Shown here: positions 7,355 through 51,078 of the stretch, piece after piece
Numbering within the stretch: position 1 is the first letter of the stretch
Layout of the letters: every line of letters starts with the position of its first letter
NCBI GenBank assembly: GCA_030697645.1
Contig: JAUYPI010000015.1
Span: 15,583 to 79,582, forward strand
Length of the DNA: 64,000 nt
Source: a bacterium
Lineage (GTDB): Bacteria; Patescibacteriota; Minisyncoccia; Phycocordibacterales; VMGT01
Reading direction: 5' to 3'
The notes under the pieces: model-generated
Database searches by the model: none
Told to the model about the DNA's origin: nothing
The model's input: only the letters and a program-made list of their open reading frames with translations
Made by a program: the position numbers and the translations under genes

Positions 7355-7399
7355 CCGTTTCTTATGAAAGTGCATGTTTTGTAGAATGGCTCGAACTGC

Positions 7400-8135: not shown

Positions 8136-8136
8136 T

Positions 8137-8328: not shown

Positions 8329-8697
8329 ATGGCTCTCGTAAAAAAATATTGGCTCGCACTTGTGGTAACCGCTGTCCTCGGCGCGGGTGCTCTGGCGTAC
8401 ACACTGTTCCGTTCTTCCGAGGTCACCGAGCTCGCATCGAGCGAGTCGAAGGATCCGGTTGTCGCCGCGCAGAGCGCCGAGACGCTCGAACTTTTGAGCA
8501 ACCTCAAAAGATTGAGCTTTGACGAGGCGCTCTTCCGCGATCCACGCTTCAGAAGCCTTATTGATTTTAGCGTTGAGCTCACGCCGGAGCCCAAGGGGAG
8601 GCGCAACCCCTTTTTGCCGTTTAGCGACGAGGGTGGCGGCGCGGCGGGCACCAGCACGTCCGCTCTGGTAGCAACGTCTACACGCTCTCTCCCATGA
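8329..8697 (+). CDS. Hypothetical pilus-associated protein (PilP-like position)
   Basis: About 122 aa with an N-terminal TM (YWLALVVTAVLGAGALAY). Sits between the pilO-like gene and pilB. Identity is inferred only from context. The ORF track starts at 8293. Confidence 0.35.
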   Translation: MALVKKYWLALVVTAVLGAGALAYTLFRSSEVTELASSESKDPVVAAQSAETLELLSNLKRLSFDEALFRDPRFRSLIDFSVELTPEPKGRRNPFLPFSDEGGGAAGTSTSALVATSTRSLP

Positions 8698-8739
8698 GCG
8701 GCGGGAACAGCGCTGTAGCATAAGAAGTGTAAAACGCAA

Positions 8740-8927
8740 AGCGAAAAGCGAAAAACAACAGCACAAAATTTCAAGCTCCAACCAACAAGCTCCAAACAAA
8801 TTCCAATGATTCAAATCTCAATCTCGAAACACGCCGGTTTGAGATTTGAGATTTGGAATTTGAGGTTTATTTGGAAGTTGTTTTTTGGAATTTGGAAATT
8901 CGTTTTCTTTGCGCTTTTCATTTCTGT
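8740..8927. repeat. Composite hairpin-array element (outer arms GCAAAGCGAAAA, inner arms ATTTCCAA / TTGGAAAT, core GAAACACGCCGGTTTGAG)
   Basis: Nested inverted repeats: acgcaaagcgaaaagcgaaaaacaacagcacaaaat...ttccaa... core ...ttggaatttgag...ggaaattcgttttctttgcgc. Ends at the pilB ATG (8928). Confidence 0.75.
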
Positions 8928-10658: not shown

Positions 10659-10731
10659 GCTTGGAGAGTAGAGGGTAGACACGGATAAAACGGCACTGAG
10701 TTGCCCGTCCCACTTTCCACTTTCTCGTCAC

Positions 10732-11121
10732 ATGAGCGAAAATGAAAAACAAAAAAAGCAACTCCTGCTTATTGATGACGATGAGTTTCTCATTGATATG
10801 TACTCCACGAAGTTTACGGGGGCAGGGTTCGCTGTTATGGCGATGCGGAGCGTAGATGAGGCCCTCGGGAAGCTGCGTGAAGGGTACACACCTGCCATTA
10901 TCCTTCTTGATCTTGTCATGCCCACGGTTGGCGGCATTGCATTTTTGAAAGCGAGGCGAGATGAGCGCCTTGCGCCTGATGCGGTCGTCATTGTGCTCTC
11001 AAATCAGAGTGATGAGGCGCGCATCGAGGAGGCGAAGAAGCTTGGGGCGAAGGGATATATTTTGAAAGCGAACACCGTACCGTCGGAGGTATTAGAGCAG
11101 GTGCAGGCGCTTGCGGGTTAA
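10732..11121 (+). CDS. Single-domain response regulator (CheY/PilH-like receiver)
   Basis: 129 aa with receiver-domain acidic pocket residues (LLIDDDE...LLDLVMP) and a conserved K near the C-terminus. Sits between pilB and pilT. Confidence 0.7.
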   Translation: MSENEKQKKQLLLIDDDEFLIDMYSTKFTGAGFAVMAMRSVDEALGKLREGYTPAIILLDLVMPTVGGIAFLKARRDERLAPDAVVIVLSNQSDEARIEEAKKLGAKGYILKANTVPSEVLEQVQALAG

Positions 11122-11232
11122 TTTTCAATGCTCAATTTTCAATCAATTTACAATGGTCCAATTTTCAAACACGACGTCGTTCATCTATTGAAACATTGAA
11201 AATTGAAAATTAGAAATTGAAAATTTTCGTCT
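11122..11232. repeat. Hairpin-array element (AATTTTCAAT family)
   Basis: ttaattttcaatgctcaattttcaatcaatttacaatggtcc - aattttcaaacacgacgtcgttcatct - attgaaacattgaaaattgaaaattagaaattgaaaatt. Ends 9 nt before the pilT ATG. Confidence 0.8.
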
Positions 11233-12294
11233 ATGGATTACCACAAAGAATTCGAAAGGCTGGTGGAGATTATCTCGAATGAGAACGCGTCCGATCTCCA
11301 CCTTGCAGAAGGGCGTAACCCGATCATCCGCGTGGGGAGCTTCCTCGCGCCACTTTTGAAGTGGCCGGCACTCACGCGCGAGAACATGGAAGGCTATATG
11401 GGAGTTTTGCTATCGAAGAAGAATGAGGCACGATTCCTTGAAACGCGCGAGGTTGACTTTTCGTTTGGTTTACGCGACGTGATGCGTTTCCGCGGGAACG
11501 GGTACATGCAGCGGGGGCTTCTCTCGTTCGCGCTTCGCGTGATCCCGCGCGAAATCCGTACACTTGCGGAGCTCGGCCTTCCGCCGATACTCGAAACATT
11601 TGCGGGACGGCGGCAGGGGTTTTTTCTGGTTGTGGGGCCGGTGGGGCAGGGCAAGAGCACGACGCTCGCTTCGATGGTAGAGATCATTAACCGCACCCGC
11701 GCCGAGCATATCATCACGATCGAGGATCCAATCGAGTATATCTATGAACCCAAGAAGGCTATTATTGATCAGCGGGAAGTGCGCATTGATACCGGCGACT
11801 TCAAAACCGCCCTCCAATCAACATTCCGCCAGGATGTCAATGTGATTCTCGTCGGGGAGATGCGCGATCCTGAGACCATGGCGACGGCAGTGACCGCGGC
11901 GGAGACGGGACACCTCGTTTTCTCGACGCTCCACACGAATAATGCTTCACAGACCGTGGATCGCATCATTGACTCATTCCCAGCGACCCAGCAGGAGCAA
12001 ATCCGCACACAGCTTGCAGGATCGCTCCTCGGCATATTCTCGCAGCGGCTCCTGCCGCGGATCGCGGGCGGGCTCTCTCCGGCCTATGAGCTTCTCGTGA
12101 ATACCCCCGCGACTGCGAATCTCATCCGTGAGGGGCGGACCCATGAACTGCCCTCGGCCCTCGAGACCGGTTCCGAGCATGGGATGGTGGCGCTCAACCG
12201 CTCGCTCGCCGAACTCGTTGGCGCGGGAGAGATCTCGGTGGAGGATGCCTATACGCATTCGTATAATCCGCAGGCGTTGGAGAAGATGCTCTAA
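11233..12294 (+). CDS. pilT: Twitching motility ATPase PilT
   Basis: Walker A VVGPVGQGKSTTLASMV, followed by IITIEDPIEY and the AIRNLIRE-like region (ATANLIREGRTHEL). 353 aa. Confidence 0.9.
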   Translation: MDYHKEFERLVEIISNENASDLHLAEGRNPIIRVGSFLAPLLKWPALTRENMEGYMGVLLSKKNEARFLETREVDFSFGLRDVMRFRGNGYMQRGLLSFALRVIPREIRTLAELGLPPILETFAGRRQGFFLVVGPVGQGKSTTLASMVEIINRTRAEHIITIEDPIEYIYEPKKAIIDQREVRIDTGDFKTALQSTFRQDVNVILVGEMRDPETMATAVTAAETGHLVFSTLHTNNASQTVDRIIDSFPATQQEQIRTQLAGSLLGIFSQRLLPRIAGGLSPAYELLVNTPATANLIREGRTHELPSALETGSEHGMVALNRSLAELVGAGEISVEDAYTHSYNPQALEKML

Positions 12295-12359
12295 AACGAA
12301 ATTGCTCGACCTGTCACCTGTCGAGGCGGCATGGTTCAAGGTTGCCTGGAGGAGTGCCG

Positions 12360-12531
12360 GCACGAGAAATTTTCAATTTCCAATTTTCAATTTCCAATCA
12401 ATTTTTAATTACTCAATTTTCAAACACGTCGTCGCCATTGAGTCATTGAAGCATTGAAAATTTATTGAAAATTGCTCATTGAAAATTGAAAATTAAAAAT
12501 GTCTGCCTTTGGTTTCCCCCTTTAGCATTTC
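12360..12531. repeat. Hairpin-array element (AATTTTCAAT family)
   Basis: gaaattttcaatttccaattttcaatttccaatcaatttttaattactcaattttcaaacacgtcgtcgccattgagtc ... attgaaaatttattgaaaattgctcattgaaaattgaaaatt. Confidence 0.75.
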
Positions 12532-13773: not shown

Positions 13774-13900
13774 AAGTCAATTTCCAATTTCCAAATTTTC
13801 AAATCTCAAACACGGAAAACGTTCGGGTTTGGAAATTGGAGCTTTGAGATTTGGAGATTGTTTGGAAATTGTAAATTTGGAACTTGGAAATTCGAGTCTT
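13774..13900. repeat. Hairpin-array element (arm ATTTCCAA / TTGGAAAT, core CAAACACGGAAAACGTTCGGGTTTGG)
   Basis: caatttccaatttccaaattttcaaatctcaaacacg...cgggtttggaaattggagctttgagatttggagattgtttggaaattgtaaatttggaacttggaaatt. Ends 6 nt before the secF ATG at 13901. Confidence 0.75.
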
Positions 13901-14860: not shown

Positions 14861-14902
14861 GCATTTGCAATAACTCTGCGATCGCAGAGTTATTGCAAAT
14901 GC
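14861..14902. promoter_or_regulatory. 42-bp perfect palindrome GCATTTGCAATAACTCTGCG-AT-CGCAGAGTTATTGCAAATGC (GCGATCGC centre)
   Basis: Perfect dyad between the secF stop and gmhA. A near-identical copy lies at 40032..40073. It could be an operator or a terminator stem. Confidence 0.5.
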
Positions 14903-15025
14903 CACAAGTGACCACGCGTTGCTTTTCGCGTTTGCTTTTAGAGAGCGCAGCTGCTACTCTGCCTCATAGGTTGACCTTTTTTAAGATATATACGAGCCGA
15001 AACAACGAGACGAGGAGGAGAGCCC

Positions 15026-15631
15026 ATGGGACAGTTGGCGTGGAATTGCCAGTTTTTTCAGTACCTGCAACAGATCGATCAGCTCGCCGAGAAAATGCGG
15101 AACGATAAGGAGCTGGTTCGAAGCGTTGAGCATGCAACCCAGTGCCTGATTTCTACCCTGGGCACTGGCCACAAGATCCTCATTGCCGGCAATGGCGGCA
15201 GCGCGGCGCATGCGCAGCACTTTGCGGCCGAGCTCGTGGGTCGCTTTGCGAGGGCGCGACGGGCGCTGCCAGCACTCGCGCTCACGACCGACACCTCGAT
15301 CATCACGGCGTGGAGCAATGATTTTTCGTTTGAGGATGTGTTTGCGCGGCAGATCGAGGCGCTTGGCGCACAACGCGATATTTTTCTCGCCCTCTCAACG
15401 AGCGGTAATTCTTCGAACGTGATAGTCGCACAGAACGCGGCAAAGTTGCGAGGCCTTAGGATGCTGTGCCTTTTGGGCAAAGGCGGCGGCAAGCTTCTCG
15501 AAGCGTGTGAGCTCGAAGACTGTATTGTCGTGCCGTCGGACAACACGCAGCTTATCCAGGATGCGCATCAGTGGATTTTGCATCATTGGTGCGCGGCAAT
15601 TGATGAGGCGTTCTCGTCGATGGAGCGGTAG
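15026..15631 (+). CDS. gmhA: Phosphoheptose isomerase (SIS domain) GmhA
   Basis: SIS-domain motifs ILIAGNGGSAAHAQHFAAEL and FLALSTSGNSSNVI. About 190 aa. Confidence 0.7.
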   Translation: MGQLAWNCQFFQYLQQIDQLAEKMRNDKELVRSVEHATQCLISTLGTGHKILIAGNGGSAAHAQHFAAELVGRFARARRALPALALTTDTSIITAWSNDFSFEDVFARQIEALGAQRDIFLALSTSGNSSNVIVAQNAAKLRGLRMLCLLGKGGGKLLEACELEDCIVVPSDNTQLIQDAHQWILHHWCAAIDEAFSSMER

Positions 15632-15704
15632 GATGATTGCGCGGCTACTGCGGGACATCCGATGTCCCGCAGTTCTGTAAACCGGAAAAAACAAAAGGGG
15701 CGAA

Positions 15705-16703
15705 ATGATGAATAGCGGTGCGCAGGGGTTGAGAGACATTGTTCTATCCTGGCAGGGCAAGCGCATCGGGGTGATCGGCGACGTGATGCTCGACCACTAT
15801 ATTGAGGGCGAGGTCACAAGAATTTCCCCCGAGGCACCGGTGCCGATCGTGAACGTCAAGCGGGAGTGGTATGCCCCTGGCGGTGCGGCGAATGTTGCGG
15901 CGAATATCGCCTCACTCGGCGGGGAAGTTGAGCTCAGTGGCGTGATCGGCGTTGATGAGGCGGGGGACCAGCTGGTGCGTGAGCTTAAAAAGCGCGGTGT
16001 GAGTTTTCGCGCTACGTGTTTCCCCGACCGTCCCACAACGGAGAAGACCAGGATTCTGGTAGGCAATCAACAGTTGGTGCGCATTGATCGAGAAGCGTGT
16101 ACATCAGTTGATTCCGGGCGTATGCAGCAACTATGGAATGAGCTCGTGGATTGGAAGCAGGCGTGGGACGTGGTTGTAATTTCTGACTACGCGAAGGGCG
16201 TTCTCGCCACGGGTCTCCCTCCGCACATCATTGAATGTGCGCGTCGGCGTCAGAAGCCAGTCATCGGCGATGCGAAACCACAGAACATCAGGGCGTTTTA
16301 TGGCGCCACGGTTTTAATGCCGAACGAATTGGAGATGCGCGCCGTTTTAGAGGGGCTGCATGTCGAGAATTATTGCGCTGCTGCAAAGACGCTCGAGACT
16401 TTATTTTTGGTGACACTTGGCGAGAAAGGTATGGTGTCTGCTGACGCGGAGTCGATAGAGGAGTATCCGACGATACCACGCGATGTGTCCGATAATGTCG
16501 GCGCGGGCGATACTGCGACAGCGGCAGTTGCGCTTGCACTTGCCTTTGGTACCGCGATTCCTGACGCCGCTCGAATCGCAAACGCCGCCGCTGGTGTCGT
16601 CGTCGGCAAGCGTGGCACGGCAACGGTCTCGACCGATGAGCTGCTTGCGGCGCTTGATGAGATGGGCGTGCATGAAATGCACCCGCCGTCTCGGCCGTCG
16701 TGA
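15705..16703 (+). CDS. hldE: D-beta-D-heptose 7-phosphate kinase (RfaE/HldE domain I, PfkB family)
   Basis: PfkB carbohydrate-kinase pattern GVIGDVMLDHYIEGEVTRISPEAPVPIV...GGAANVA with a C-terminal GAGDT motif (VGAGDTATAA). Sits next to gmhA. Confidence 0.75.
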   Translation: MMNSGAQGLRDIVLSWQGKRIGVIGDVMLDHYIEGEVTRISPEAPVPIVNVKREWYAPGGAANVAANIASLGGEVELSGVIGVDEAGDQLVRELKKRGVSFRATCFPDRPTTEKTRILVGNQQLVRIDREACTSVDSGRMQQLWNELVDWKQAWDVVVISDYAKGVLATGLPPHIIECARRRQKPVIGDAKPQNIRAFYGATVLMPNELEMRAVLEGLHVENYCAAAKTLETLFLVTLGEKGMVSADAESIEEYPTIPRDVSDNVGAGDTATAAVALALAFGTAIPDAARIANAAAGVVVGKRGTATVSTDELLAALDEMGVHEMHPPSRPS

Positions 16704-16786
16704 GGCGGCGAAAAATCGTCCTCCAAGCCTGTAAAACGTTACGGGGCAGCTTCTTATTCTAAGAAGCTGCCCCCCTTTTTCGATCT

Positions 16787-17962
16787 TTACGCGAGGAGCT
16801 CAGCGAAGCGACGCCTGTCTTCTATATGCTGCCGAAGGTATTGCATGTAGGGAGTTCCGCCCGTCCCGACATCAGATCGGTTGTATGCACTCGAGTGCGC
16901 CGTCTGATCCTGAATGTAACGTTGCGGATAGCCGAAGTGTATTTCGGAAAATTCCACCATGAGCATCAGAGAGCGATGGAGTTCCTCGCACAGTGCCGGG
17001 TACGTCCTCTGGCAGCCAAGCGCGTAGAGGAGGAGCGATTCGTCTCCTTGTTGGGTCAGAATGGCGAGATCCTTGAGATACTGCCGATGGTGCGATGGCA
17101 TATAATTTGGCATGTCCCGCAAATACTCAGCGAATGCTCCGTCAGTTCGGTGCGGGATGCCAAAAGCGCAGTCGAGAGCAGGAACGATGAGACTTTGTGA
17201 TCCGCTCTCGCCCCAGAAATCCTGCGGTACGTCATCCCAAAAACCGCTGTAGATGACGGGGTGCAGGCGGAAACCCTGGATGTACGGACGCACCATGCTG
17301 AAATACGCTCCCGGATTACAGTGCTCGGGCATGCGTCTGAGGTGCGCATTCATTTTTTCGAGGATCCCTGCGCATTCCCTCAAGAGTGTAATCATCCTTA
17401 CTGCGTCATCGGCAATCCGCGCGTGGTGGAGTTCGGCGAGGAGCGACGGGATCCGTGCGGCAGACGCTTCAATGGCAACATGGATTGCGTTAAACCATCT
17501 GGCATCTTCTGTGCGCAGAAAATACTGCTGCAGTTCGATGTTGTCCGGCTCCAGTTTTCCGTCCGGATCAATGAGCTCCCAGTTCCAGAGCAGGAACGGC
17601 GCGTAGGAGAGAATGGACTTCATGCCGAGACGCCTCGCAAGGTAGACGAGGACTGCTGAGAGCGGTGACTTGATGGACGCCGTCGGAGGCGTCGCACCCC
17701 ATACCCACGCGGCTCCGAGAAATGTTGCCGTGCGGAATAAAAGACGCGCCTGTGCCGGCGGCATCGGTTTCTCCAATGCTTTCTTCGTTATCGCAAGTCG
17801 TGCGATTTCGTCGCACGCGGTGCCGCGGAGGAGGAGCTCGGGAAGGCGTTGTGCAACTTCGAGCCATTCGTCGAACGGCGGTTGTAGGCTATCGGCGCAT
17901 CGCTGAAGGCAGCCAAGCTCTGTGTCGATACCGTAGAGTTCCGAGAAGATTTTGTGATCCAC
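16787..17962 (-). CDS. Indoleamine 2,3-dioxygenase (IDO)-family heme dioxygenase homolog
   Basis: FWDDVPQDFWGESGSQSLIVPALDCAFGI...EYLRDMPNYMPSHHRQYLKDL matches the IDO core FWEDPKEFAGGSAGQSS..FDVLLGI...FLQDMRRYMPPAHRNFL, including the proximal His region. 391 aa. The family match is from memory, not a search. Confidence 0.65.
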   Translation of the reverse strand: MDHKIFSELYGIDTELGCLQRCADSLQPPFDEWLEVAQRLPELLLRGTACDEIARLAITKKALEKPMPPAQARLLFRTATFLGAAWVWGATPPTASIKSPLSAVLVYLARRLGMKSILSYAPFLLWNWELIDPDGKLEPDNIELQQYFLRTEDARWFNAIHVAIEASAARIPSLLAELHHARIADDAVRMITLLRECAGILEKMNAHLRRMPEHCNPGAYFSMVRPYIQGFRLHPVIYSGFWDDVPQDFWGESGSQSLIVPALDCAFGIPHRTDGAFAEYLRDMPNYMPSHHRQYLKDLAILTQQGDESLLLYALGCQRTYPALCEELHRSLMLMVEFSEIHFGYPQRYIQDQTAHSSAYNRSDVGTGGTPYMQYLRQHIEDRRRFAELLA

Positions 17963-18163
17963 TGGCTACTCCTTTAAGGAAGAGTGGTTATTGTCGGGTG
18001 GGGAACAGACGCTCACCATATGCTAGCGATTCTTGTTTTTTTTGTCAATCATAGGACATACGGTCGGCGATCAGGACACGTGTAACGATGGCACTTGATC
18101 GCCTCGAAATAGAGGCGGTCGTAGAGGAAGTTGCGAACATGATCTTCGGCGGTCACCTGGACG

Positions 18164-19570
18164 TTGCTCTCGCCCGTGCAGTGGTTGACCTCTCGTTTGT
18201 TTTCGTCTATAAAACTGGAGATGACTTCCAGCTTAAAATACGTAGTCAAGACCGCTGCATTTCTCGCGGTGCCGTATGCTCTGACTGCTGCGATTATCTA
18301 TCTTGCGTTCTCAACGACCTATAGGCCGATTGAGGAATACAGGATTGTTCGGTTCGTCGTTGTCCTCTTCTTCGTGCCGGTAGTCTTGAAGTATGCGCTT
18401 CACCTACTTGTTGCACCGTTTTATCCCGTGGTCGAGTCCTCTCAGGCAAGACGATTACGATCCGCCATGCTGTCGGTGTCCGTGCTTATACCAGCGTATA
18501 ACGAAGAGGTTGGCATACAAACGACGCTGCGATCAGTGCTTGCCACCGCGTACCCACATCTCGAGATCATTGTCATCAACGATGGATCAACCGATCGCAC
18601 ACACCGCCTTGTCGTGGACTTTATTCGACACCAGAGGAAGACACAGTCGTCTCCAGCCACGATACGATACCGCCAGATAGTAAACGGCGGCAAGGCGCGC
18701 GCACTAAACGTCGGCCTATCCATGGCACACGGCGATATCGTCATTACGATTGACGCCGACAGTGTCATGGGCAAGGACGCCATAGTCAACATGGTGCGGC
18801 GCTTTACGCACTCGCGAGTGGCGTCTGTCGCCGGCAACGTTGCCATAGGCAACAAGCATGGTCTTCTCGGACTGGTTCAGCAGCTCGAATATCTCTACGG
18901 ATTTTATTTCAAGCGTGCGGATGCGCTTTTGAACGCAGTCTATATCGTCGGCGGCGCTGCAGCTGCGTATCGTCGGGATGTGATTGAGGCACTCGGCGGA
19001 TTCGACGAGCACACTATCACAGAAGATATCGAGCTTTCCACACGTCTGCAAGATCACGGCTATATGGTTCGCTACGCTGCAGACGCGTGTGTGCTGACCG
19101 AGGGGCCCGAAACGTTTTCCGGGCTCTGTCGGCAGCGATTGCGTTGGAAGTTTGGCCGGCTGGTGACGTTCTATAGATACCGCCACCTCTTTTTCAGCAC
19201 TGATCATCACCATAGTTTTTTCCTAAGCTTTGTGATTCTCCCGATGGCGCTGTTTGCGGAGTTTCTTCTCTTGCTCCAGGGCGCCCTGCTAACAATCTTT
19301 TATATCTATATAGTGCGCACGAACGACTTTATTCCACTCATGGTCGTGATTATACTGCTGACGTGTATCATTATCTGGCAAATTTTGTCGGATACCCAGT
19401 CGCGCTACCATCGGAATCTGTTTTTGCTCGCCCCAGTCGCGTGGTTCCTTTTTTATCTGCTAGATATCGTAGAATACCAGGCGTTGATTCGGAGCATGTG
19501 GAATCTCCACCGTCGACGGCGTCCTTTGTGGCAGAGATGGAATCGTGTCGGCGTTTTCAGCGCGACGTAA
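18164..19570 (+). CDS. Family 2 glycosyltransferase, membrane-embedded (PgaC / cellulose-synthase-like)
   Basis: GT2 motifs VLIPAYNEE, INDGSTDRT, D-x-D (TIDADS), and Q-x-x-RW (CRQRLRWKFG), flanked by N- and C-terminal TM helices. The likely start is ATG 18221. Confidence 0.75.
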   Translation: MLSPVQWLTSRLFSSIKLEMTSSLKYVVKTAAFLAVPYALTAAIIYLAFSTTYRPIEEYRIVRFVVVLFFVPVVLKYALHLLVAPFYPVVESSQARRLRSAMLSVSVLIPAYNEEVGIQTTLRSVLATAYPHLEIIVINDGSTDRTHRLVVDFIRHQRKTQSSPATIRYRQIVNGGKARALNVGLSMAHGDIVITIDADSVMGKDAIVNMVRRFTHSRVASVAGNVAIGNKHGLLGLVQQLEYLYGFYFKRADALLNAVYIVGGAAAAYRRDVIEALGGFDEHTITEDIELSTRLQDHGYMVRYAADACVLTEGPETFSGLCRQRLRWKFGRLVTFYRYRHLFFSTDHHHSFFLSFVILPMALFAEFLLLLQGALLTIFYIYIVRTNDFIPLMVVIILLTCIIIWQILSDTQSRYHRNLFLLAPVAWFLFYLLDIVEYQALIRSMWNLHRRRRPLWQRWNRVGVFSAT

Positions 19571-19783
19571 GCCCTTCTTCTTCCTGTGTGCGTGTCGCCG
19601 TCCTTGCACACCACAGGTTGTCGTGGTCACCCCAGCTGCATCGGCTATAGTGGCGAGCATGACATGCGCCCACCATGAGCGATCTTTACTACGTTAACCG
19701 CCCATGCGCATGACGCGCATGGGCGCCGCTCTGTCCGTTTTCTACATTGGCCAGTCTTTGCGTTCGAGCGCGCCCACGGTACA

Positions 19784-20404
19784 ATGATTCGTGGACTGTA
19801 TTGGGTATCCTACAAGGAGGTGAAAATGGCAAAGATCCAAAATAGAGTGATGCGCTCGGTCGTGGGCGCATTTTCTCATGGGGTCGGAAAATATAGCGAA
19901 GAAAAGGAGTGCGGCGAGGCGATACACTGGACTCGGAGTGGTGGAAGTATTGGCCGTGAAAGGCGTCGCGCCTACTACCGGCTGCTCGAGAATTATGCGC
20001 AGGATTACTGCCTCTGGGCGCGGGAGCATGTCGTCGTCCTGCTTCGAAAAAAGTTCGTATTTTACCAAATGCCGGGTGGGGTGACGGAGAGTAGCGGCTG
20101 TTTTGCCTCGGAGGCGGTTCAGGACTTTTGCGTGTTCGCTTGGAATGCGCTCGCTGGTTTGCGTCTTCTGTGCAACCCGCGTCGACTGCTCTCTATAGAC
20201 AAGAGCGTAGGAGCACGCATGCTCGAGCAGGCTCTTGCCGGCCTGAAGACGCTCTTTGAGCTCTGCCGACCGCTTCTCACCGGCGAGGCACTGCGACGTG
20301 TTTTTCGCAAATTTCGTCTCTGGTGGCACGAGTGGTGCGTACACGTGAGAGGCCTGCGCGAGCTCATCCGTATATACTGGCCTCCATCATCCTCCGGCTC
20401 GTGA
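19784..20404 (+). CDS. Hypothetical protein
   Basis: 206-aa ORF with a hairpin terminator after it (cccgcccgcgca-tttttt-gtgcgggcggg at 20412..20445). No recognisable domain. Confidence 0.35.
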   Translation: MIRGLYWVSYKEVKMAKIQNRVMRSVVGAFSHGVGKYSEEKECGEAIHWTRSGGSIGRERRRAYYRLLENYAQDYCLWAREHVVVLLRKKFVFYQMPGGVTESSGCFASEAVQDFCVFAWNALAGLRLLCNPRRLLSIDKSVGARMLEQALAGLKTLFELCRPLLTGEALRRVFRKFRLWWHEWCVHVRGLRELIRIYWPPSSSGS

Positions 20405-20553
20405 TAGTAAACCCGCCCGCGCATTTTTTGTGCGGGCGGGCAAACATTTGTGCACGACCGATTTTTCCTCCACTGGTTTAGGGTTGAGCATGTCTGGAGC
20501 GTGAACATCTTTGCCGAAAATACCACCGTCGCCCGCTCACTACAAAAGTGGCC

Positions 20554-20582
20554 TTGACCGCGCGCGGGGCTTCGGCTATAGT
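20554..20582 (+). promoter_or_regulatory. Candidate rRNA promoter (TTGACC-17 nt-TATAGT)
   Basis: Near-consensus sigma-70 -35 and -10 hexamers with a 17-nt spacer, about 180 nt upstream of the 16S 5' end. Confidence 0.4.
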
Positions 20583-20764
20583 AGCTAGGCGGTGTCTTCA
20601 AGGCATGCGCGCGAGAGTTCTTTGACAACAGAATAAGCATACACACAAGACAAAGCAAAAACAAAACGTCTATTCCTTAAAAAAACAGAGAGCAGAAGAA
20701 GTTGTTCCTTCTTTTGTTCCGTCCACAAATAGGGAGGTTGGAGATACTCCAACTTCTATAATTT

Positions 20765-20803
<39 letters not shown>

Positions 20804-20851
20804 GATAAGGCATGCAAGTCATACGGGCCGCACCTCATTGCATTCGGTGCG

Positions 20852-20990
20852 GAATTTTCAATTTTCAATTTTACAATTTTCAAATAATTTCCAATGATTA
20901 AATTTCCAATTTCCAAACACGACGTCGTCGGCGTTTGAAAATTGACCCATTGAAAATTTATTGAAAATTGAAAATTGATAATTGAAAATT
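20852..20990. repeat. Hairpin-array element (AATTTTCAAT family) inserted in the 16S V1 helix
   Basis: Same arm unit and core (caaacacgacgtcgtcggcgtt) as the pil intergenic copies. Flanked by hairpins ccgcacctcattgcattcggtgcgg and gccgcaccgagtgtggcgaggtgcggc. Confidence 0.8.
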
Positions 20991-21190
20991 CCGCCGCACC
21001 GAGTGTGGCGAGGTGCGGCTAGTGGCGAACGAGGCAGTAATACGCAGGAACGTACCCTGGAGACGGGCATAACCAGCCGAAAGGTTGGCTAATTCCCGAT
21101 GGTCCGAGCACATATTTTTGGAGAAAAACAAAAGGCGCATCCTGTACCTGTATAGATACTTTGGATGCGCCCTGCAACATTGAGCGGTTT

Positions 21191-21310
21191 CTAGAGGAAC
21201 AGGAAAGTAGCAATCATTACGGCGATGATACCGACTAAGACCCAAGACATCCAACGAAGCTGACTTGGGCCATAGTCTATTCTTCCGCTCTGTCCTCTCG
21301 CGATTTTCAT
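21191..21310 (-). CDS. Candidate 39-aa single-TM peptide antisense to the 16S V2 insertion
   Basis: aggaggTCGTCatg SD-ATG, then MKIARGQSGRIDYGPSQLRWMSWVLVGIIAVMIATFLFL. It is below the 60-aa cut-off of the ORF track. Coordinates are approximate to a few nt. Confidence 0.3.
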   Translation of the reverse strand: MKIARGQSGRIDYGPSQLRWMSWVLVGIIAVMIATFLFL

Positions 21311-22157
21311 GACGACCTCCTTTTTCGCTGAAGAAAGAAAAGCATAGGGGTCTATATATTGTCAAGTATCTTACTTGGCTTCCAAAAATATGTGCTCGGT
21401 AAAGGAGCAATCTGCTCCGGGAGCGGCCTGCGGGCTATCAGCTAGTTGGTGGGGTAACGGCCTACCAAGGCTCTGACGGCTAGGGGGGGTGAGAGCCCGA
21501 TCCCCGCCGATGACACTGCGACACGGGTCATACACCTACGGGTGGCAGCAGCCGAGAATATTCGACAATGGGCGAAAGCCTGATCGAGCGACGCCGCGTG
21601 GTGGATGAAGCACTTCGGTGCGTAAACACCTTTTATGAGGGAAGAAGTTCGCCGCACCTCATTGCATTCGGTGCGGACATTTCGATATATCGAAATTTCG
21701 AAATATCGAAATGTCCGCCGCACCGAGTGCAGCGAGGTGCGGCGGATTGACGGTACCTCATGAATAAGGGGCTCCTAATCACGTGCCAGCAGGAGCGGTA
21801 ATACGTGAGCCCCAAGCGTTATCCGGAATCACTGGGCGTAAAGGGTGTGTAGGCGGCCGCGTTAGTCCTCCGTTAAATCCCACGGCTCAACCGTGGAGCT
21901 GCGGAGGATACGGCGCGGCTTGAGGGCGCGAGAGGTGTGCGGAACTCACGGTGTAGGGGTGAAATCCGTTGATATCGTGGGGAACACCAAAAGCGAAGGC
22001 AGCACACTGGCGCGCCCCTGACGCTGAAACACGAAAGCGTGGGTAGCGAAGCAGATTAGATACCTGCGTAGTCCACGCCCTAAACTCTGTCCGCTAGCTT
22101 TTCGGAGTATCGACCCTCTGGGAGGCGAAGCTAACGCGTTAAGCGGACCGCCTGGGA

Positions 22158-22189
<32 letters not shown>

Positions 22190-22722
22190 AGACGGGGACC
22201 AGCACAAGCGGTGGATCATGTGGTTCAATTCGATGGTAAACGAAGAACCTCACCAGGGCTTGAAATCCAGATGAACTCGCCTCGAAAGGGGTGCGGCCTT
22301 CACAAGAGGCATCTGGACAGGTGCTGCATGGTTGTCGTCAGTTCGTGGCTTAAGTTGTTCCCTTTAGTGGGGTAACGAACGCAACCCCCGTCGCCTGTTA
22401 TACGTGTCAGGCGAGACTGCCCAGCCCAAAGTGCGGCTCACTTCGGTTCGCCGCAGAATCAAGAAGTATGAAGTATGAAGTATGGAAATGTACGAAGAAA
22501 AACCATAATTCATGATTCATAATTCTTGCTTCTGCATCGAGCGGAGCGAGATGCATTTCGGGCTGGGAGGAAGGCGGGGATGACGCCAAATCAGCATGGC
22601 CCTCTGACGCCCTGGGCTACACACGTGATACAATGGCCGGTACAACGGGTCGCGACGGGGTAACCCTGAGCCAATCCTTATAAAGCCGGCCTCAGTTCGG
22701 ATTGAGGTCTGCAACTCGACCT

Positions 22723-22757: not shown

Positions 22758-23610
22758 TATACTGCGGTGAATACGTTCTCTGGTCTTGTACTCACCGCCC
22801 GTCATGCTAAGGGAGCCGGGAATACCCGAAACCCCGCCCTTTGCTCGCGGAGCAAAGGGCGGGATATATCGAAATTTTGAAATATCGATATGTCCCGCCC
22901 TTTGTTCACTTCGTGAACAAAGGGCGGGGTTACGGTAAGCTCGGTGACAGGAGCAAAGTCGTTGAGACATACTGTCTTGTTGCGACCTATGTGAGCGATC
23001 ACATAGTAAAACCCAACTGATATCGGTGAACCCCAGCGTACACAATTCACAATTTCTAATTTCAATTTTGAATTAGTCATTGAGAATTCGTAGTTGCGCC
23101 AGCTGGGCAATACCGAGGGAAGCCCACTAGGAGCTAGTTTTTTAACTGGTAACTAGTTGCGGCCCCGTAGAGACTTCCTGCACTTTTCTAGAAGTAGAAG
23201 GCGCAGGGGATGGCGTTGAAAAATTCACGCTATAAAACGTTGGCCCCAGCCGTAAAGTTTCCTAAAGAAACATTACGGCTGGGTGAAGATATAGTCCGTG
23301 CCTCAATGTAAATTGAGGGTAACACATGAACAAGGCACCGGTAGCGGAAGCTGTTGGTGGAATCATTCCTAGATCCCGTCCCAAGGCGCGTAAAGCGCGC
23401 CATGTTTAAATATTTAAATGTTTAAACATGGCCAAAATTCGCTTTGCGAATTTTGGCGAGGACTGATCAGGTCGGTCCGAGGGTGGAAGTTTTTCTTCCA
23501 TTCCTCGGAATCATGCTGTGGCTGTCAGCTAAACCAGCTAGCGGAGTTAGATGCAAATTTAGCTTCCAACCGTGGACGGAACAAAAGAGGGAACAAAAAA
23601 CACTCAAAAA

Positions 23611-23640
23611 ACCGCTCAATCGAGCGGTTTTTTGCTTCGC
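23611..23640 (+). terminator. Intrinsic terminator after the 16S gene
   Basis: aaccgctcaatcgagcggtt hairpin plus a TTTTTT tail. There is no 23S or tRNA in the following 40 kb of window, so the rRNA operon looks unlinked. Confidence 0.6.
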
Positions 23641-23703
23641 AGCGAATAGCCGAAAGATTTTTATTGCACGTTAAAAAATCATGCTAGTCAAGTAGTATCT
23701 TGG

Positions 23704-23732
23704 TTGACAATCGTACATTCTCCTGTAAGCTA
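23704..23732 (+). promoter_or_regulatory. Candidate promoter (TTGACA-16 nt-TAAGCT) of duplicated unit 1
   Basis: Consensus -35 followed by a TAnnnT -10. It is duplicated almost exactly at 25489..25516 upstream of the paralogous gene. Confidence 0.4.
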
Positions 23733-23902
23733 TTGAAGTTGCCTAGATTTAGGCATCGAGATTAAACCTCTCTTTATATGGGAGGTTTTGTTTGTTCTTT
23801 GTTAACGGAAAGGAGGTGATGCCTATGTGGGTTTCGTGAGAGATACAAGGGTTTTTCCCGAGTTTTTCAACTGATGACAAACGGAAATGAAAGGGAAGAT
23901 TC

Positions 23903-25276
23903 ATGGTTTCGAAATTAAAGTTCTTGGTCGCAGTATTGCTGATGATTGGTCTTGGTCTGCCCATGTCTATGGTGGCAGCCCCGGCGCCAGATGCAGTGTC
24001 TGTCCTTATTTTGGACAGCACAGTAAGCGGAGGGGCTCTATCGCGTGAGGCAGTACTCGCTGCCGCGAACGGGTTCACAGTGGTAGTTGACAGCGCCGCG
24101 GCCTGGGGCGCGAGAACTATGGCTGAATTCGCGACCTTTAGGGCGATCATTCTCGGTGATGCGACGTGCACGGGCGTTGGCGCGGTGGCCGCCGCCGAAG
24201 CAAACAAGGCAGTGTGGGGGCCAGCGATAGATGGCAACGTGATTATCAACGGTACGGACCCGGTATTTCACCAGGGCCAAGGCGGGGATGCGCTTACCGA
24301 AGGCAGCATTAAGTTTGCGGCTGATGAGCCAACTAAGACAGGCGCCTACATCAGTCTGAGCTGCTATTATGCCGGTGCAGCCTCTGGCACACCCGCGCCT
24401 GTGTTGGATCCTTTTGGCAGTTTTACGGTCGTTGGTCAGGGTGGATGCCCCGCAGATTCGCACATCGTGGCAGTGCACCCGGCGCTTGCTGGGATTACTG
24501 ATGCCAGCCTGTCAAACTGGGGTTGTTCTACCCACAACGGGTTTGTGACGTATCCGGCGGACTTCCTCGTTCTTGCTATTTCCGAGGATATCCCTTCAAC
24601 CTATGTGGCGCCTGATGGATCGACTGGCGCCCCCTATATTCTCGCGCGTGGTGAGACGCTCTCGCCGATTCTGTGCGGGAACGGGATTCTGGAGATGACC
24701 GAGGAGTGCGACGACGGTAACGTTGTCAACGGAGATGGATGTTCTGCCCAGTGCAAGATTGAGGTCTATGTACCTGCGTGCGGGAACGGAATCCTTGATT
24801 CAGGCGAGCAGTGCGACGACGGAAACCTGCTGAATGGGGACGGATGTTCGGATGTCTGTAAGTTCGAGAACCAAGACCCCGATTGTAAGAGCGCGTATCC
24901 TGATCCGGCGACCCTTTGGCCACCGAATCATAAGTACGTGACCGTTTCTGTTCTCGGTGTCACGGATCCTGACGGCGATGCAGTCGTTGTCATGGTGAAC
25001 AGCGTGACGCAGGACGAGCCAGTAAATGGTCTCGGTGACGGCGACACCTCGCCCGATGCCGTGATTAATTCTGACGGTACAGTCAAGGTTCGCGCCGAAC
25101 GCTCCGGAACCCCAAAGGTACCAGGTGATGGACGAGTCTATCACATTGGTTTCATGGCGGAAGACGGCATGGGCGGCAAGTGCGCCGGGACTGTCTTAGT
25201 GTGCGTGCCCCACGACATGGGACAGGGCAGCGTCTGTGTAGACGGCGGACCGCTGTATGACTCGCTCATGCCGTAG
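23903..25276 (+). CDS. Secreted protein: signal peptide, N-terminal domain, two myxo-type cysteine-rich repeats, shared C-terminal domain
   Basis: Signal peptide MVSKLKFLVAVLLMIGLGLPMSMVAAPA. Two C-x-N-G-x-L-E/D-x-x-E-x-C-D-D-G-N-x-x-N-G-D-G-C-S repeats (TIGR02232-like; family from memory). A C-terminal ~130-aa domain (WPPNHK...VTDPDGD...GTPKVPGDGRVYH...VCVPHDMGQGSVCVDGGPLYDSLMP) is shared with 25712..27766. Confidence 0.6.
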   Translation: MVSKLKFLVAVLLMIGLGLPMSMVAAPAPDAVSVLILDSTVSGGALSREAVLAAANGFTVVVDSAAAWGARTMAEFATFRAIILGDATCTGVGAVAAAEANKAVWGPAIDGNVIINGTDPVFHQGQGGDALTEGSIKFAADEPTKTGAYISLSCYYAGAASGTPAPVLDPFGSFTVVGQGGCPADSHIVAVHPALAGITDASLSNWGCSTHNGFVTYPADFLVLAISEDIPSTYVAPDGSTGAPYILARGETLSPILCGNGILEMTEECDDGNVVNGDGCSAQCKIEVYVPACGNGILDSGEQCDDGNLLNGDGCSDVCKFENQDPDCKSAYPDPATLWPPNHKYVTVSVLGVTDPDGDAVVVMVNSVTQDEPVNGLGDGDTSPDAVINSDGTVKVRAERSGTPKVPGDGRVYHIGFMAEDGMGGKCAGTVLVCVPHDMGQGSVCVDGGPLYDSLMP

Positions 25277-25334
25277 TAGTTAACCCTCCTTCCGTAATTT
25301 TGTAAGGCCGCCTCATCCTCTGAGGCATGGCAAA

Positions 25335-25372
25335 CGGCCCGAGCTTATACCTTGCTCGGGCCGTTTCCTTTT
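25335..25372 (+). terminator. Intrinsic terminator of duplicated unit 1
   Basis: ggcccgagc-ttatacctt-gctcgggcc plus a T-rich tail. A near-identical copy lies at 27822..27860 after the paralog. Confidence 0.55.
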
Positions 25373-25488
25373 GTCCAATTGTCCAACGATTAAAAATCGC
25401 TCCGTTGAGCGGTTTTTTGCGTCGCGTTTAATCGAAGGAGGATTTTAATCGCACATTAAATAATCATAGCAGTCAAGTATTACTTGTG

Positions 25489-25516
25489 TTGACAAACGTA
25501 CATCCTCCTGTAAGCT
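25489..25516 (+). promoter_or_regulatory. Candidate promoter of duplicated unit 2
   Basis: Near-identical copy of 23704..23732 and its downstream structured leader (gttgcctag.tttaggcatcg...aacctctctttat.gggaggt.ttgtttgttctttgttaacggaaaggaggtg). Confidence 0.4.
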
Positions 25517-25711
25517 ATGGAAGTTGCCTAGTTTTAGGCATCGGTATCAAACCTCTCTTTATGGGAGGTCTTGTTTGTTCTTTGTTAACGGAAAGGAGGT
25601 GGTGCATTTGAGTGTCGCAGGTATCGCAGGACGATATTTTTTGCGAGAGGGACGGAGCGAATTGTTCACTCCGCCCGAGACGAATCCAGTCTACGGAAAA
25701 GGAACGATTGA

Positions 25712-27766
25712 ATGTTACGACATTATGTAGCGACTGTTTTGGTTGTAGTGATGGCGCTTGTTGCGCCATTGCAATCGGCTCTCGCGGGCCATCTCACCGG
25801 TACTCCGGCAACGTACACGCTCGATGCAGACTTCGACGAGGGCACCCTCGTGAACGTCAACCATACTGATGTGACTGATCAACTTCAGCTCAACAGTGTA
25901 GCTAAGCCATTTGGTTTCATTTGGATCGCCGCATCCGATCGTGGAACGGTGATCAAGATTAACACAGTGACTGGCGCAATTCTCGGCGAATATCGGACTG
26001 CACCTGCAGGCCGCGCGCTTAACCCGTCTCGGACTACCGTTGACAGCAATGGCAGTGTCTGGGCAACAAACCGCAACGAAGGCGACTTTGTCGCAGCCAA
26101 CGCCATTTCACCAGGTATTCCAGCCGCAGGTGGCGGCATGGGTTCTGTCGTCCACATCGGCCTTGAAGAAAACGGGCAGTGTGTGGATCGAAACGGCAAT
26201 GCTGTTATTGATACGTCCGCGGGACTTGGCGATATTAAGCCATGGCTAAACGGCGGCGGTGTTGATAATCTTGGCGGTGTCTCAACCGCCGAGGACGAGT
26301 GTATTATTCACTACACGCGTGTCAACTCAACCTTTTCCCGGCATGTGTCTGTTAATACCAGCAACAATGTGTGGGTCTCTGGCATCGGGGATCGGAACTT
26401 CGACCTCGTTGACGGTGCGACTGGCATGATCATTAGTCAACAGCCATCCGTCGGCTTCGGGGGCTATGGCGGTTTGATTGACGGCGCAGGTGTTATCTGG
26501 TCTGCGCGGCCACTCCTGCGCTGGGATACGGCGCTTCCTTTAGTGGGGCCAAATGGGGATCCTGCGGGATTTAGCATCGGTCCGCCAGCGCCTGCAACCA
26601 ATTGGTCCGGCCAAGGTGCGCCTGATAGTTATGGGCTCTGCATTGACCCATCTGGCAATGTCTGGAATACGCGCTTGTTCGGAAATGCGATTGACAAGTA
26701 CGCGCCGGACGGCACACACCTCGGCACATTTGCCCATGGAAATGGTGAAGCGCAGGGCTGTGTCGCAGACACGAGTGGCCATATCTGGGTTGCACATTCT
26801 TTATTCGGTGCGACCACTGTTGGTCATTTACTGAATGACGGCACCTACGTGGGGAACGTGCCTCTTCCGGGAGGTGTCGGCCCAACTGGTCTTGCCGTGG
26901 ATGCGGCTGGAAAAATTTGGTCTGCTAATATTAGCTCCAATAACGCCTCACGGATTGATCCCTCGTTGGGACCTATCGGTGGAGGCGGAGTTCCTGTCGG
27001 TGCCGTAGACATGACGGTCGCGCTCGGTGCGGGCGCAGGTCCGTATAATTATTCCGACATGACCGGCAGCACCCTGATTGCTGCGCCGAACAATGGCACA
27101 TGGACGATCGTTCATGATAGCGGTGTCGTCGGGCAAGAGTGGGGCAAGGTGAGCTGGACTGCTTCCACGCCGTCCGATAGCATGCTGACGGTGACGGTTG
27201 CGAGTAGTGGCGACGGTTTGATCTTTGGACCTCCGGAAGCCGCGACGAATGGCGGCGATCTGTCGGTCGCGAACGGACAGTATGTGAAGGTGGTCGTGAG
27301 CTTTACGCGCGCGACGACCGGCGAGAGTCCTATCTTGTATGACTTAAGTCTCTCAACGAACGAAGCTCCCGACTGCGACGGTGCCTATGCGGACCCAGGC
27401 GTAATCTGGCCGCCGAATCACAAAATGGTGCCGCTTACAATAAGCGGCGTGACGGATCCTGATGGCGATCCGGTCGTGATCATAGTGACAGGTATCATGC
27501 AGGACGAGCCGACGAACACGCTTGGCGATGGCAACACCGAAGTTGATGGCGCTATTGACATGAGTGGCATGGCTTCTGTTCGTGCCGAACGCACCGGAAC
27601 CCCCAAAGTACCGGGTGACGGACGAGTCTACCATGTGACCTTCGAAGCTGATGATGGCAATGGTGGAAAATGCTCCGGTGTTGCACGGGTCTGCGTACCC
27701 CACGACATGGGACAGGGCAGCGTCTGTGTAGACGGCGGACCGCTGTATGACTCGCTCATGCCATAA
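25712..27766 (+). CDS. Secreted protein: signal peptide, beta-propeller-like repeat region, shared C-terminal domain
   Basis: Signal peptide MLRHYVATVLVVVMALVAPLQSALA. Repeated G-x-h-W-x-x-N blades (NGSVWATN, SGNVWNTR, SGHIWVAH, AGKIWSAN) resembling NHL / SMP-30-type propellers. The final ~130 aa are paralogous to 23903..25276, and the last 25 aa are identical. Confidence 0.6.
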   Translation: MLRHYVATVLVVVMALVAPLQSALAGHLTGTPATYTLDADFDEGTLVNVNHTDVTDQLQLNSVAKPFGFIWIAASDRGTVIKINTVTGAILGEYRTAPAGRALNPSRTTVDSNGSVWATNRNEGDFVAANAISPGIPAAGGGMGSVVHIGLEENGQCVDRNGNAVIDTSAGLGDIKPWLNGGGVDNLGGVSTAEDECIIHYTRVNSTFSRHVSVNTSNNVWVSGIGDRNFDLVDGATGMIISQQPSVGFGGYGGLIDGAGVIWSARPLLRWDTALPLVGPNGDPAGFSIGPPAPATNWSGQGAPDSYGLCIDPSGNVWNTRLFGNAIDKYAPDGTHLGTFAHGNGEAQGCVADTSGHIWVAHSLFGATTVGHLLNDGTYVGNVPLPGGVGPTGLAVDAAGKIWSANISSNNASRIDPSLGPIGGGGVPVGAVDMTVALGAGAGPYNYSDMTGSTLIAAPNNGTWTIVHDSGVVGQEWGKVSWTASTPSDSMLTVTVASSGDGLIFGPPEAATNGGDLSVANGQYVKVVVSFTRATTGESPILYDLSLSTNEAPDCDGAYADPGVIWPPNHKMVPLTISGVTDPDGDPVVIIVTGIMQDEPTNTLGDGNTEVDGAIDMSGMASVRAERTGTPKVPGDGRVYHVTFEADDGNGGKCSGVARVCVPHDMGQGSVCVDGGPLYDSLMP

Positions 27767-27821
27767 GTAGTTACCCTCCTTCCGTAATTTTGCGAGGCCG
27801 CTTCATCTTCTGATGCGTGCC

Positions 27822-27860
27822 ACGGCCCGAGCTATTACCTTGCTCGGGCCGTTTCCTTTT
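27822..27860 (+). terminator. Intrinsic terminator of duplicated unit 2
   Basis: ggcccgagc-tattacctt-gctcgggcc plus gtttccttttg. Confidence 0.55.
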
Positions 27861-27985
27861 GTAAAAGTGGACATCTAAAAGTGGACATCGGATGTCCACC
27901 AAATGTCCACCAATTTATTCAAAGCGTAAAAAATCCGGGCAACCACGGCTGTGGTTGCCCGGATTCTCCTTGCCCGCGATCGTTT

Positions 27986-30974: not shown

Positions 30975-31191
30975 GCCAAGCGGAAAACGCAAAACGAAAA
31001 ACAACAGTGCAAAGCGCAAAAAATTTCCAATTTCCAAAAAACAATTTCCAAACGAATCTCAAATCTCAAGTTCCAAATCACAAACGTTCGTGTTTGGAAC
31101 TTGAACTTTGAATCATTGGAATTTGTTTGGAGCTTGTTTTTTGGAGCTTGAAATTTTATTCTGTTGTTTTGCGCTTTTCGTTTTGCGCTGC
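30975..31191. repeat. Composite hairpin-array element (outer GCAAAACGAAAA / inner ATTTCCAA, core CAAACGTTCGTGTTTGG)
   Basis: Same nested architecture as 8740..8927 and 54286..54520. Ends at the ATG (31194) of the next gene. Confidence 0.75.
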
Positions 31192-51010: not shown

Positions 51011-51078
51011 TTCGTCGTGGTGTGACGTCGGATGTCAACGTCGGCGATTTCGATTATTCAAAGTAACCAAATACGGCG

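Follow-up and report, generated by a model that had tools for sequence, protein, structure and literature searches.

Intervening sequences (IVS) of bacterial rRNA genes are found in helix 25 and helix 45 of the 23S rRNA of Salmonella and other Proteobacteria, and in the V1 region of the 16S rRNA of a few genera. Classical IVS are removed by RNase III without re-ligation, which leaves a fragmented rRNA. To our knowledge, the origin and spread of bacterial rRNA IVS have remained unresolved since their first description. The 16S rRNA gene analyzed here lies on a 64,000-nt stretch of DNA (the window) from a bacterium of the Patescibacteriota (GenBank assembly GCA_030697645.1, contig JAUYPI010000015.1, positions 15,583 to 79,582, forward strand) and contains at least four rod-like insertion cassettes. 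These cassettes are composed of two layers, a GC-rich base module formed by a pair of flank arms and an AT-rich cap hairpin (the payload) in which units of 7 or 8 nt are repeated in tandem.

Small palindromic dispersed repeats or miniature inverted-repeat transposable elements (MITEs) of bacteria include the REP/BIME, ERIC, Correia and RPE families. In mitochondria, double-hairpin elements and GC clusters form GC-rich units of 26-79 bp. These elements are described as small, potentially mobile and intergenic, with one of five located in rnl in S. octosporus (Paquin et al. 2000, as summarized in PMC10085805).

Insertions in the rRNA genes of candidate phyla radiation (CPR) bacteria are also already known. 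Insertions of at least 100 bp are reported in 48% of CPR 16S and 82% of CPR 23S genes (Brown 2015; Tsurumaki 2022 and 2024: PMC9297842, PMC11270868). Short insertions that are not introns and contain no open reading frame (ORF) are called uncharacterized in the latter, where they are suspected to be RNase III-processed IVS and include sites of the H25/H45 type. CPR insertions are also reported to be missing from transcripts (PMC9297842, citing Brown 2015).

Insertion cassettes of the 16S rRNA gene

The 16S rRNA gene was placed with the Rfam SSU model and by alignment with the E. coli 16S rRNA, and its 3' exon was read off the sequence. A 25-nt processing stem (20702-20726 paired with 23572-23596) brackets the gene, and a promoter-like site (20554-20582) is located ahead of it. 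The gene is interrupted by six insertions (Table 1). Besides the four rods, these comprise a 296-nt insert and a group I intron; insert lengths of 174, 275 and 90 nt appear in the Rfam alignment. No group I or group II intron core was found in the cassettes, for which Rfam gave only sub-threshold generic long-hairpin matches. A permissive Rfam search over the V1 cassette returned only sub-threshold long hairpins of plant miRNAs, and no known RNA family fits it.

Table 1. Coordinates of the 16S rRNA gene, its insertions and the dispersed palindromic repeats in the window
Feature	Position	Strand	Remarks
16S rRNA gene	20758..~23372	+	Rfam SSU_rRNA_bacteria, 1273.7 bits, full model; 3' end approximate
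V1 (h6) cassette	20827-21019	+	between E. coli positions 69 and ~101
V1 5' flank arm, A-type	20827..20852	+	GCCGCACCTCATTGCATTCGGTGCGG; exact duplicate at 21651-21676; covariance model R1, 42.1 bits
V1 payload	20853..20990	+	full-length copy of repeat family X, 138 nt; 7-nt period
V1 3' flank arm	20991..21019	+	29 nt, CCGCCGCACCGAGTGTGGCGAGGTGCGGC; pairs with V1 5' arm
h9-tip insert	21104..21399	+	296 nt; closed by a perfect 19-bp inverted repeat; kind differs from the rod cassettes
V3 (h17) cassette	21651..21743	+	between E. coli positions 453 and 478; A-type arms 21651-21676 and 21715-21743
V3 payload Y	21677-21714	+	8-nt period
h40-loop cassette	22425..22565	+	flanks of the A-type motif family (5' ..GCGGCTCACTTCGGTTCGCCGC.., 3' ..GCATCGAGCGGAGCGAGATGC..); R1, 30.5 bits
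h44-tip cassette	22826..22935	+	B-type flanks, each a perfect GC hairpin; payload Y'
Group I intron	22963..23328	+	RF00028 match 22954-23318, 51.8 bits; between ..AAGTCGT and AACAAGG..
X copies outside the rRNA gene (intergenic)	6623-6727 (+), 7403-7506, 8142-8266, 11120-11225, 12368-12494		
Further intergenic X copies	52730-52845 (reverse orientation), 59431-59735 (with nested palindrome)		
Second palindromic family	8770-8900, 13779-13888, 31021-31155, 54330-54475; partial 41205-41238, 50930-51013		AATTTCCAA / CAAATCTCAA arrays, apex CAAACACG..

The same flanks and payloads are reused within this gene. The 26-nt 5' arm GCCGCACCTCATTGCATTCGGTGCGG occurs exactly twice on the plus strand, at V1 and V3 (26 of 26 positions identical), with zero occurrences expected by chance, and the 3' arm CCGCACCGAGTGTGGCGAGGTGCGGC at 20994-21019 recurs at 21718-21743 with two mismatches (24 of 26). 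The h44 payload shows 94% identity with the V3 payload over 33 nt. In the window, the X payload (V1) and the Y payload (V3) share a flank type, and the Y payload type is found with two flank types (at V3 and h44). An original prediction made from the sequence of the window had claimed that the flank pair of the V1 insert recurs at V3 (21652-21743) around another payload, and the arm matches bear this out. It had also placed a third module near h44 at 22832-22928, which was recovered as 22826-22935 with GC hairpin flanks and the V3-like payload. The 139-nt V1 element that it had set at 20852-20990 is a real insert, the boundaries of which were corrected to 20853-20990 (138 nt). Its interpretation of these segments as reused cassettes is supported; the h40 cassette, the 296-nt h9 insert and the group I intron were found in addition.

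In the minimum-free-energy folds, the flank arms of each cassette pair together to give one continuous rod that extends the host helix, so that a long near-continuous stem-loop prolongs the helix at each site. The A-type arms account for about 25 imperfect base pairs of this extension. The rods of the V1, V3, h44 and h40 cassettes fold with -98.9 (z-score -12.9), -78.5, -81.5 and -66.9 kcal/mol, respectively, and the z-scores of the cassette folds range from -9 to -13. A form in which the flanks fold as two hairpins is possible, at a cost in stability of 10-22 kcal/mol relative to the rod. Both flanks thus belong to one rod in place of two independent hairpins, although a local hairpin of the 5' arm covaries as well (see below). 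A tRNA-like cloverleaf was dropped because its three-hairpin fold is likewise 10-22 kcal/mol less stable than the rod. Bulge-helix-bulge motifs of archaeal splicing and self-cleaving ribozyme motifs were looked for by eye and none were found.

Relatives were represented by at least 120 16S loci, mostly of Paceibacteria, which were retrieved by a 515-region signature and many of which are cut or incompletely anchored. The V1 segment has 208 nt in the window versus 22-92 nt in most of the relatives listed, with five others above 120 nt. The V3 segment has 231 nt versus 133-157 nt in the measurable relatives, and no V3 insert is present among the matches listed. The h44 segment has about 150 nt by our own coordinate count versus 68-78 nt, with one exception carrying an h44 insert among the matches listed. 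Expansions of the h40 region are common among the relatives listed. The cassettes thus include extra sequence at rRNA helix tips that is absent from homologues, and because the V3 and h44 segments are short in the measurable relatives, these two inserts are lineage-specific acquisitions and not old expansion segments. The closest relative among the matches listed is only about 83% identical in its 16S rRNA, so the relatives are too distant to date the insertions.

The payload of the V1 cassette belongs to a family of dispersed palindromic repeats (family X). The motif AATTTTCAAT, with at most one mismatch, occurs 84 times in the window versus 4 expected. Eight full X elements of 104-138 nt (excluding the nested insert of one copy) have been identified in the 64 kb, all of which start with AATTTTCAAT, end with ATTGAAAATT and contain the apex CAAACACGACGTCGT. 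The V1 copy is full-length; its identity with the seven others is 80-85%, and these seven share 83-94% identity among themselves. Because the X elements share their termini and apex with the V1 payload, this payload is a separate unit within the flank pair; the intergenic X copies have no A-type flanks. The predicted insertion within an insertion is thus present at V1, where a dispersed repeat sits inside the flank pair. With many dispersed copies, conserved termini and inverted repeats, family X has the features of a MITE or REP-like repeat. Neither the flank nor the X apex was found in viral contigs.

Several intergenic X copies fill short gaps between pilus operon genes. Five of them (6623-12494) lie in gene-sense orientation within the gaps of a type IV pilus operon, several stop 4-10 nt before the next start codon, and their 3' halves match the sigma-70-like pattern TTGAAA-17-GAAAAT; these copies may influence expression. 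Nested in the 3' half of the X copy at 59431-59735 is a near-perfect palindrome of 176 nt (AGACCTCTCCAGAAAGTCATTTC...GAAATGACTTTTTGGAGAGGTCT), which represents an insertion in an insertion outside the rRNA gene, and a peripheral loop of the group I intron (~23044-23090) holds a short X-like palindrome. These two cases indicate that palindromes within palindromes are common in this genome. At least four full and two partial copies of a second palindromic family (AATTTCCAA type) are also present in the window, and a copy with 77-78% identity was detected inside the 23S rRNA gene of another contig (L140), between E. coli positions 130 and 187.

The flank module and its caps in other genomes

The A-type flank was defined by a motif pair, CTCAYT-N3-5-TTCR in the 5' arm and CGAG-N3-6-GCGAG in the 3' arm, with an outer helix joining the arms. 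Its consensus is 5' CCGCAYCUCAYUGCAUUCGRUGCGG ... 3' CGAGYGYAGCGAGRUGYGG. The motif pair, the covarying 5' hairpin and the outer helix are all present at V1, V3 and h40 of the window. A scan of 1 Mb of related loci together with the window recovered these three sites, the V1 insert of a Portnoybacteria 16S rRNA gene (L024), the h9 insert of a Kaiserbacteria 16S rRNA gene (L120) and two further pairs that are probably due to chance. The 5' arm of L120 agrees with that of the window in 22 of 26 nt and contains a C>T / G>A change that is compensatory.

The JGI metagenome collection was scanned for exact matches to a 21-nt degenerate 5'-arm pattern. Nineteen loci were obtained, 16 of which are complete cassettes inside rRNA genes; the other three are bare matches without a 3' arm, which is about the number estimated by chance for a 21-mer of that degeneracy. 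The cassettes in 23S rRNA map to E. coli positions ~540-553 (H25), ~1157-1185 (H45) and ~270-282, and those in 16S rRNA to h9 and h17. One cassette (L136) is located upstream of a 23S rRNA gene. The metagenomic h17 cassette shares the V3 site of the window, and the 515 region of its organism differs from that of the window. Additional members were found with the covariance model R1 of the 5' arm, namely a cassette in h9 (L083) and second cassettes in L125, L126 and L136. Across different lineages, the same flank sequence is shared by six helices, which belong to two rRNAs. Members of this family occupy helix 25 and helix 45 of 23S rRNA, the recurrent IVS sites, the window itself holding no 23S rRNA gene. 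The A-type base module is a conserved family confined to the rRNA operon (16 of 16 complete cassettes). The cassette of flank pair plus payload, originally proposed for several positions of one rRNA, is thus distributed more widely, in other CPR 16S and 23S rRNA genes. Relatives carrying unrelated, simple expansion segments had been named as the finding that would speak against it; instead, this flank module is found again in more distant genomes, at sites other than those of the window.

The arms of 18 cassettes were aligned and their pairs were counted. Compensatory changes occur in the outer rod helix, e.g., GC:7 AU:5, CG:15 UA:3 and UA:11 CG:6, and one A.C mismatch and one U.G pair are invariant (18 of 18 cassettes). 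The 5' local hairpin is 92.9% paired, with compensatory changes on both sides in five of its seven pairs. Because both the 5' local hairpin and the outer helix covary, the 5' stem has two mutually exclusive ways of pairing, in the local hairpin or with the 3' end. Conservation of the "loop" sequences has a reason other than pairing. The arms depart from perfect inverted repeats mainly by transitions that preserve G.U pairs on the rRNA-sense strand.

The caps, in turn, are wholly different between contigs (AATTTTC, AATGACC, AATGTCA, AAAAATC, GAATTAC, etc.), and the h40 payload of the window is a GAAGTAT/ATTCATA heptamer hairpin. A 7-nt period was found in 16 of 19 cassette payloads (V1 and h40 of the window; L006, L024, L083, L120 and L125-L141), and the period of the Y type is 8 nt. 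The 7-nt period of such unrelated caps may reflect a constraint on slippage or arrays of sites for protein binding. At the L128/L140 23S locus, arms identical to those of the window (25/25 and 29/29) surround a Y-type payload, and in L126 one payload is combined with two flank variants at two 23S sites. A separate flank and payload family is found at three more helices of the L140 23S rRNA gene, with copies outside or upstream of the gene. Another 16S rRNA gene (L006) contains an unrelated 125-nt cassette of this design twice, at h6 and at h9, the two copies being 96.8% identical. The caps are interchangeable between base modules. Dispersal of caps is evident only in the window and, near the L140 23S rRNA gene, for the repeats R1, R2 and Y; most payloads of the other contigs had no match in the limited non-rRNA DNA of those contigs. 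The reuse of the inserts and the membership of the V1 cap in a dispersed repeat family suggest that short rRNA insertions of CPR bacteria are modular and copied between helix tips.

In comparison with E. coli, no fewer than nine insertions have been identified in the 23S locus represented by L140 and L144-L148 (GCA_964539325.1; JGI/ENA contigs). One is 1.2 kb long and contains LAGLIDADG and GIY-YIG ORFs; another is a 110-nt cassette (CGCAGAT-type heptamers, CAGTGCTTCGCACTG / CCAATGCGTAGCATTGG flanks) that occurs at three helices and in one upstream copy.

Proposed excision and alternative explanations

Helix-tip sites, a long duplex, the classical 23S sites and a patchy distribution fit with bacterial IVS. 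The most likely reading, at moderate probability, is that the cassettes are modular IVS with MITE/REP-like caps, which would be excised from the pre-rRNA by a double-stranded RNA endonuclease acting within the conserved base module. The cassette would be transcribed in the pre-16S rRNA and would fold as a long duplex on a solvent-exposed helix tip, where RNase III or another double-stranded RNA endonuclease would cut in the base module, as for classical bacterial IVS. The ribosome would tolerate the cassette because it is cut out of the pre-rRNA. Small palindromic repeats would land at the DNA level in the apex of the base module, where they would survive because that sequence is discarded. 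Horizontal transfer or ectopic copying would carry whole cassettes from one helix tip to another and from one of the two rRNA genes to the other. The reuse of cassettes is direct evidence of copying between helix tips, and the excision reading predicts cuts inside the flank duplex.

Several points weigh against this proposal. Neither the constant 7-nt period of unrelated caps nor the invariant A.C and U.G positions are accounted for by a simple RNase III substrate, and long helix extensions can in principle stay on the ribosome surface. The 3' local hairpin is poorly conserved (68% of cells paired). A search of the 64-kb window for an RNase III signature was negative, a result that has no bearing on the remainder of the genome. 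Gene conversion, in place of recent transposition, could account for the near-identity of the arms at V1 and V3. No target-site duplication is present at the X elements, the flanking dinucleotides of which differ between the two sides in 8 of 8 copies, and no transposase is linked to the X copies, although the proteins of the window were not scanned for transposases; X is therefore called mobile only by the distribution of its copies. No empty sites or presence/absence polymorphisms were detected, and the 23S locus shows no indels across samples. The near-identical contigs provide no empty-site comparison, since L121 is chimeric from the 16S start and the Logan contig (SRR13727529), which is identical to the window over 14873-20794, ends at 20794. 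L121 (12488-12786 of GCA_034376905.1, JAXMIX010000012.1) belongs to a near-identical metagenome-assembled genome and switches to the 16S rRNA of another organism in the conserved 5' region.

Retention of the rods in the mature 16S rRNA as long surface helices comparable to eukaryotic expansion segments, with the flank module serving as a structural or protein-binding element, is the main alternative and rather unlikely. The sites are apical loops of helices h6, h9, h17, h40 and the h44 tip, which we take to be peripheral in the 30S structure, and the invariant non-Watson-Crick positions together with the covarying 5' hairpin look like a specific recognition site. However, the same module occurs at 23S H25 and H45, from which bacterial IVS are known to be excised (PMC11270868), and the reported absence of CPR insertions from transcripts (PMC9297842, citing Brown 2015) also argues against retention. 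Caps that are unrelated between genomes and common to intergenic repeats are unexpected for a functional ribosomal domain, and 50-95 bp of near-perfect AU-rich double-stranded RNA is a generic RNase III substrate.

A second possibility, likewise rather unlikely, is that the A-type flank pair marks an undescribed class of rRNA-specific mobile element. This would be a conserved structured module, with its invariant A.C and U.G positions and a switchable 5' hairpin, that seeks out exposed helix tips in both rRNAs (16S and 23S) and carries interchangeable heptamer-array palindromes. Its route might be RNA-level (reverse integration) or involve a dedicated nuclease/ligase, in place of generic RNase III and chance insertion. 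If so, the 7-nt period of the caps would reflect the measuring step of its machinery.

It is improbable that the cassettes are DNA transposons similar to the palindrome-associated transposable elements (PATEs) of the IS200/IS605 group or to REP/RAYT systems, in which a HUH transposase would read the flank hairpins, the cassette would move into single-stranded DNA and the RNA rod would be a by-product. The 5' flank hairpin, with its conserved loop and covarying stem, resembles protein-recognized hairpins, the payload arms are inverted arrays of short repeats similar to multiple transposase-binding sites, nesting occurs (e.g., within 59431-59735) and no target-site duplication was seen. However, such transposons scatter through genomes, whereas rRNA operons were the only location of the flank module (16 of 16 complete cassettes) and the intergenic X copies have no flanks. 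Of the features expected of PATEs, subterminal hairpins beside a fixed short target, a covarying 5' hairpin is present, the 3' hairpin is weak and no common target sequence is visible beside the 18 cassettes. The G.U-preserving arm transitions on the rRNA-sense strand also speak against a DNA transposon, and no transposase is linked to these elements, with the limit on the window proteins given above.

Vertical, lineage-specific expansion of variable regions by slippage, without mobility and with arms shared through intragenic gene conversion, is very improbable. Tandem 7-8-nt repeats can grow and the Y payloads do vary in unit number, but the same flank is found at six helices of two rRNAs in different lineages, the termini and apex of the V1 cap match intergenic copies, and the V3 and h44 inserts are missing from nearly all relatives listed. 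An assembly artefact, in which the assembler spliced repeats into the rRNA gene, is scarcely credible: other assemblies of the organism break or turn chimeric at the conserved 16S 5' end, but the cassettes lie exactly at helix tips with helix continuity kept, the 5' and 3' processing stems match, and equivalent cassettes occur in many independent assemblies, including one 23S cassette locus (L140) that is no artefact because six contigs of other assemblies are collinear with it at 99.5-99.9%.

Other features of the locus and comparison with known systems

An antisense ORF of 39 amino acids (21191-21310, minus strand; MKIARGQSGRIDYGPSQLRWMSWVLVGIIAVMIATFLFL) was identified in the h9 insert. It is preceded by AAGGAGG 5 nt upstream, its C-terminal half is hydrophobic, and a GC hairpin followed by a T-run lies past its stop codon. 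The ORF, which has no match in Pfam, looks like a small membrane peptide (type I toxin-like), the mRNA of which would fully complement the pre-16S rRNA. The 3' end of the 16S rRNA gene (23359-23373) reads GGAATCATTCCTAGA, without the canonical CCUCC anti-Shine-Dalgarno sequence. This sequence is also missing in the Paceibacteria 16S rRNA of L014, L023, L031, L036, L053, L090, L097 and L109 (e.g., GGAATAATTCAA), and L068 and L113 retain CACCTCCTT. The 515 region (21783-21804) is GTGCCAGCAGGAGCGGTAATAC, in which GAG replaces CCG and thereby creates a mismatch to the universal 515F primer. The V1, V3 and h44 inserts alter the length of amplicons, and they make these bacteria harder to detect and to assemble by means of 16S rRNA.

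Two tandem genes for secreted cysteine-rich-repeat proteins (23903-25276 and 25712-27766) are located just downstream of the 16S rRNA gene. Their upstream regions (23607-23832 versus 25392-25615; 81-87%) and their 3' ends with terminators (25088-25381 versus 27578-27869; 80-90%) are duplicated, and the genes appear to be a recent tandem paralogue pair.

The mitochondrial double-hairpin elements have no conserved base with a variable cap, and their sequences are unrelated to the cassettes. PATEs and REP/RAYT elements are similar to the cassettes in having hairpins at both ends (weak at the 3' end of the cassettes), no target-site duplication and nesting. Unlike them, the ends of a cassette are complementary to each other and the module is confined to rRNA operons; no HUH transposase was identified, the proteins of the window not having been scanned. 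Family X resembles REP- and MITE-type repeats in being an imperfect palindrome with conserved termini in many intergenic operon spacers. It differs in that its arms are arrays of 7-nt repeats and one copy lies in a structural RNA gene within another palindrome.

The window belongs to the same phylum-level phenomenon as the other CPR rRNA insertions, and its group I intron is a standard example. The available text of the two CPR surveys (PMC9297842, PMC11270868) characterizes introns and homing endonucleases; in that text, no description was found of the flank-plus-cap design and its combinatorial use, of a base module conserved in sequence and structure across helices of both rRNAs, of the identity of a cap with a genome-wide intergenic repeat, or of the within-gene duplication of cassettes. 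The flank motif and the covariance model provide a concrete search model for annotating such inserts.

Bacterial IVS are among the closest described systems. They are similar to the cassettes in being inserted at apical loops, in forming long stem-loops, in using the same 23S helices (H25 and H45) as this family and in their patchy distribution, and removal of the cassettes from the rRNA would by analogy follow the same course. Unlike described bacterial IVS, the cassettes of the window family share a sequence-conserved base module among different helices of both rRNAs, and their caps are interchangeable hairpins with a 7-nt period, one family of which is also dispersed between genes.

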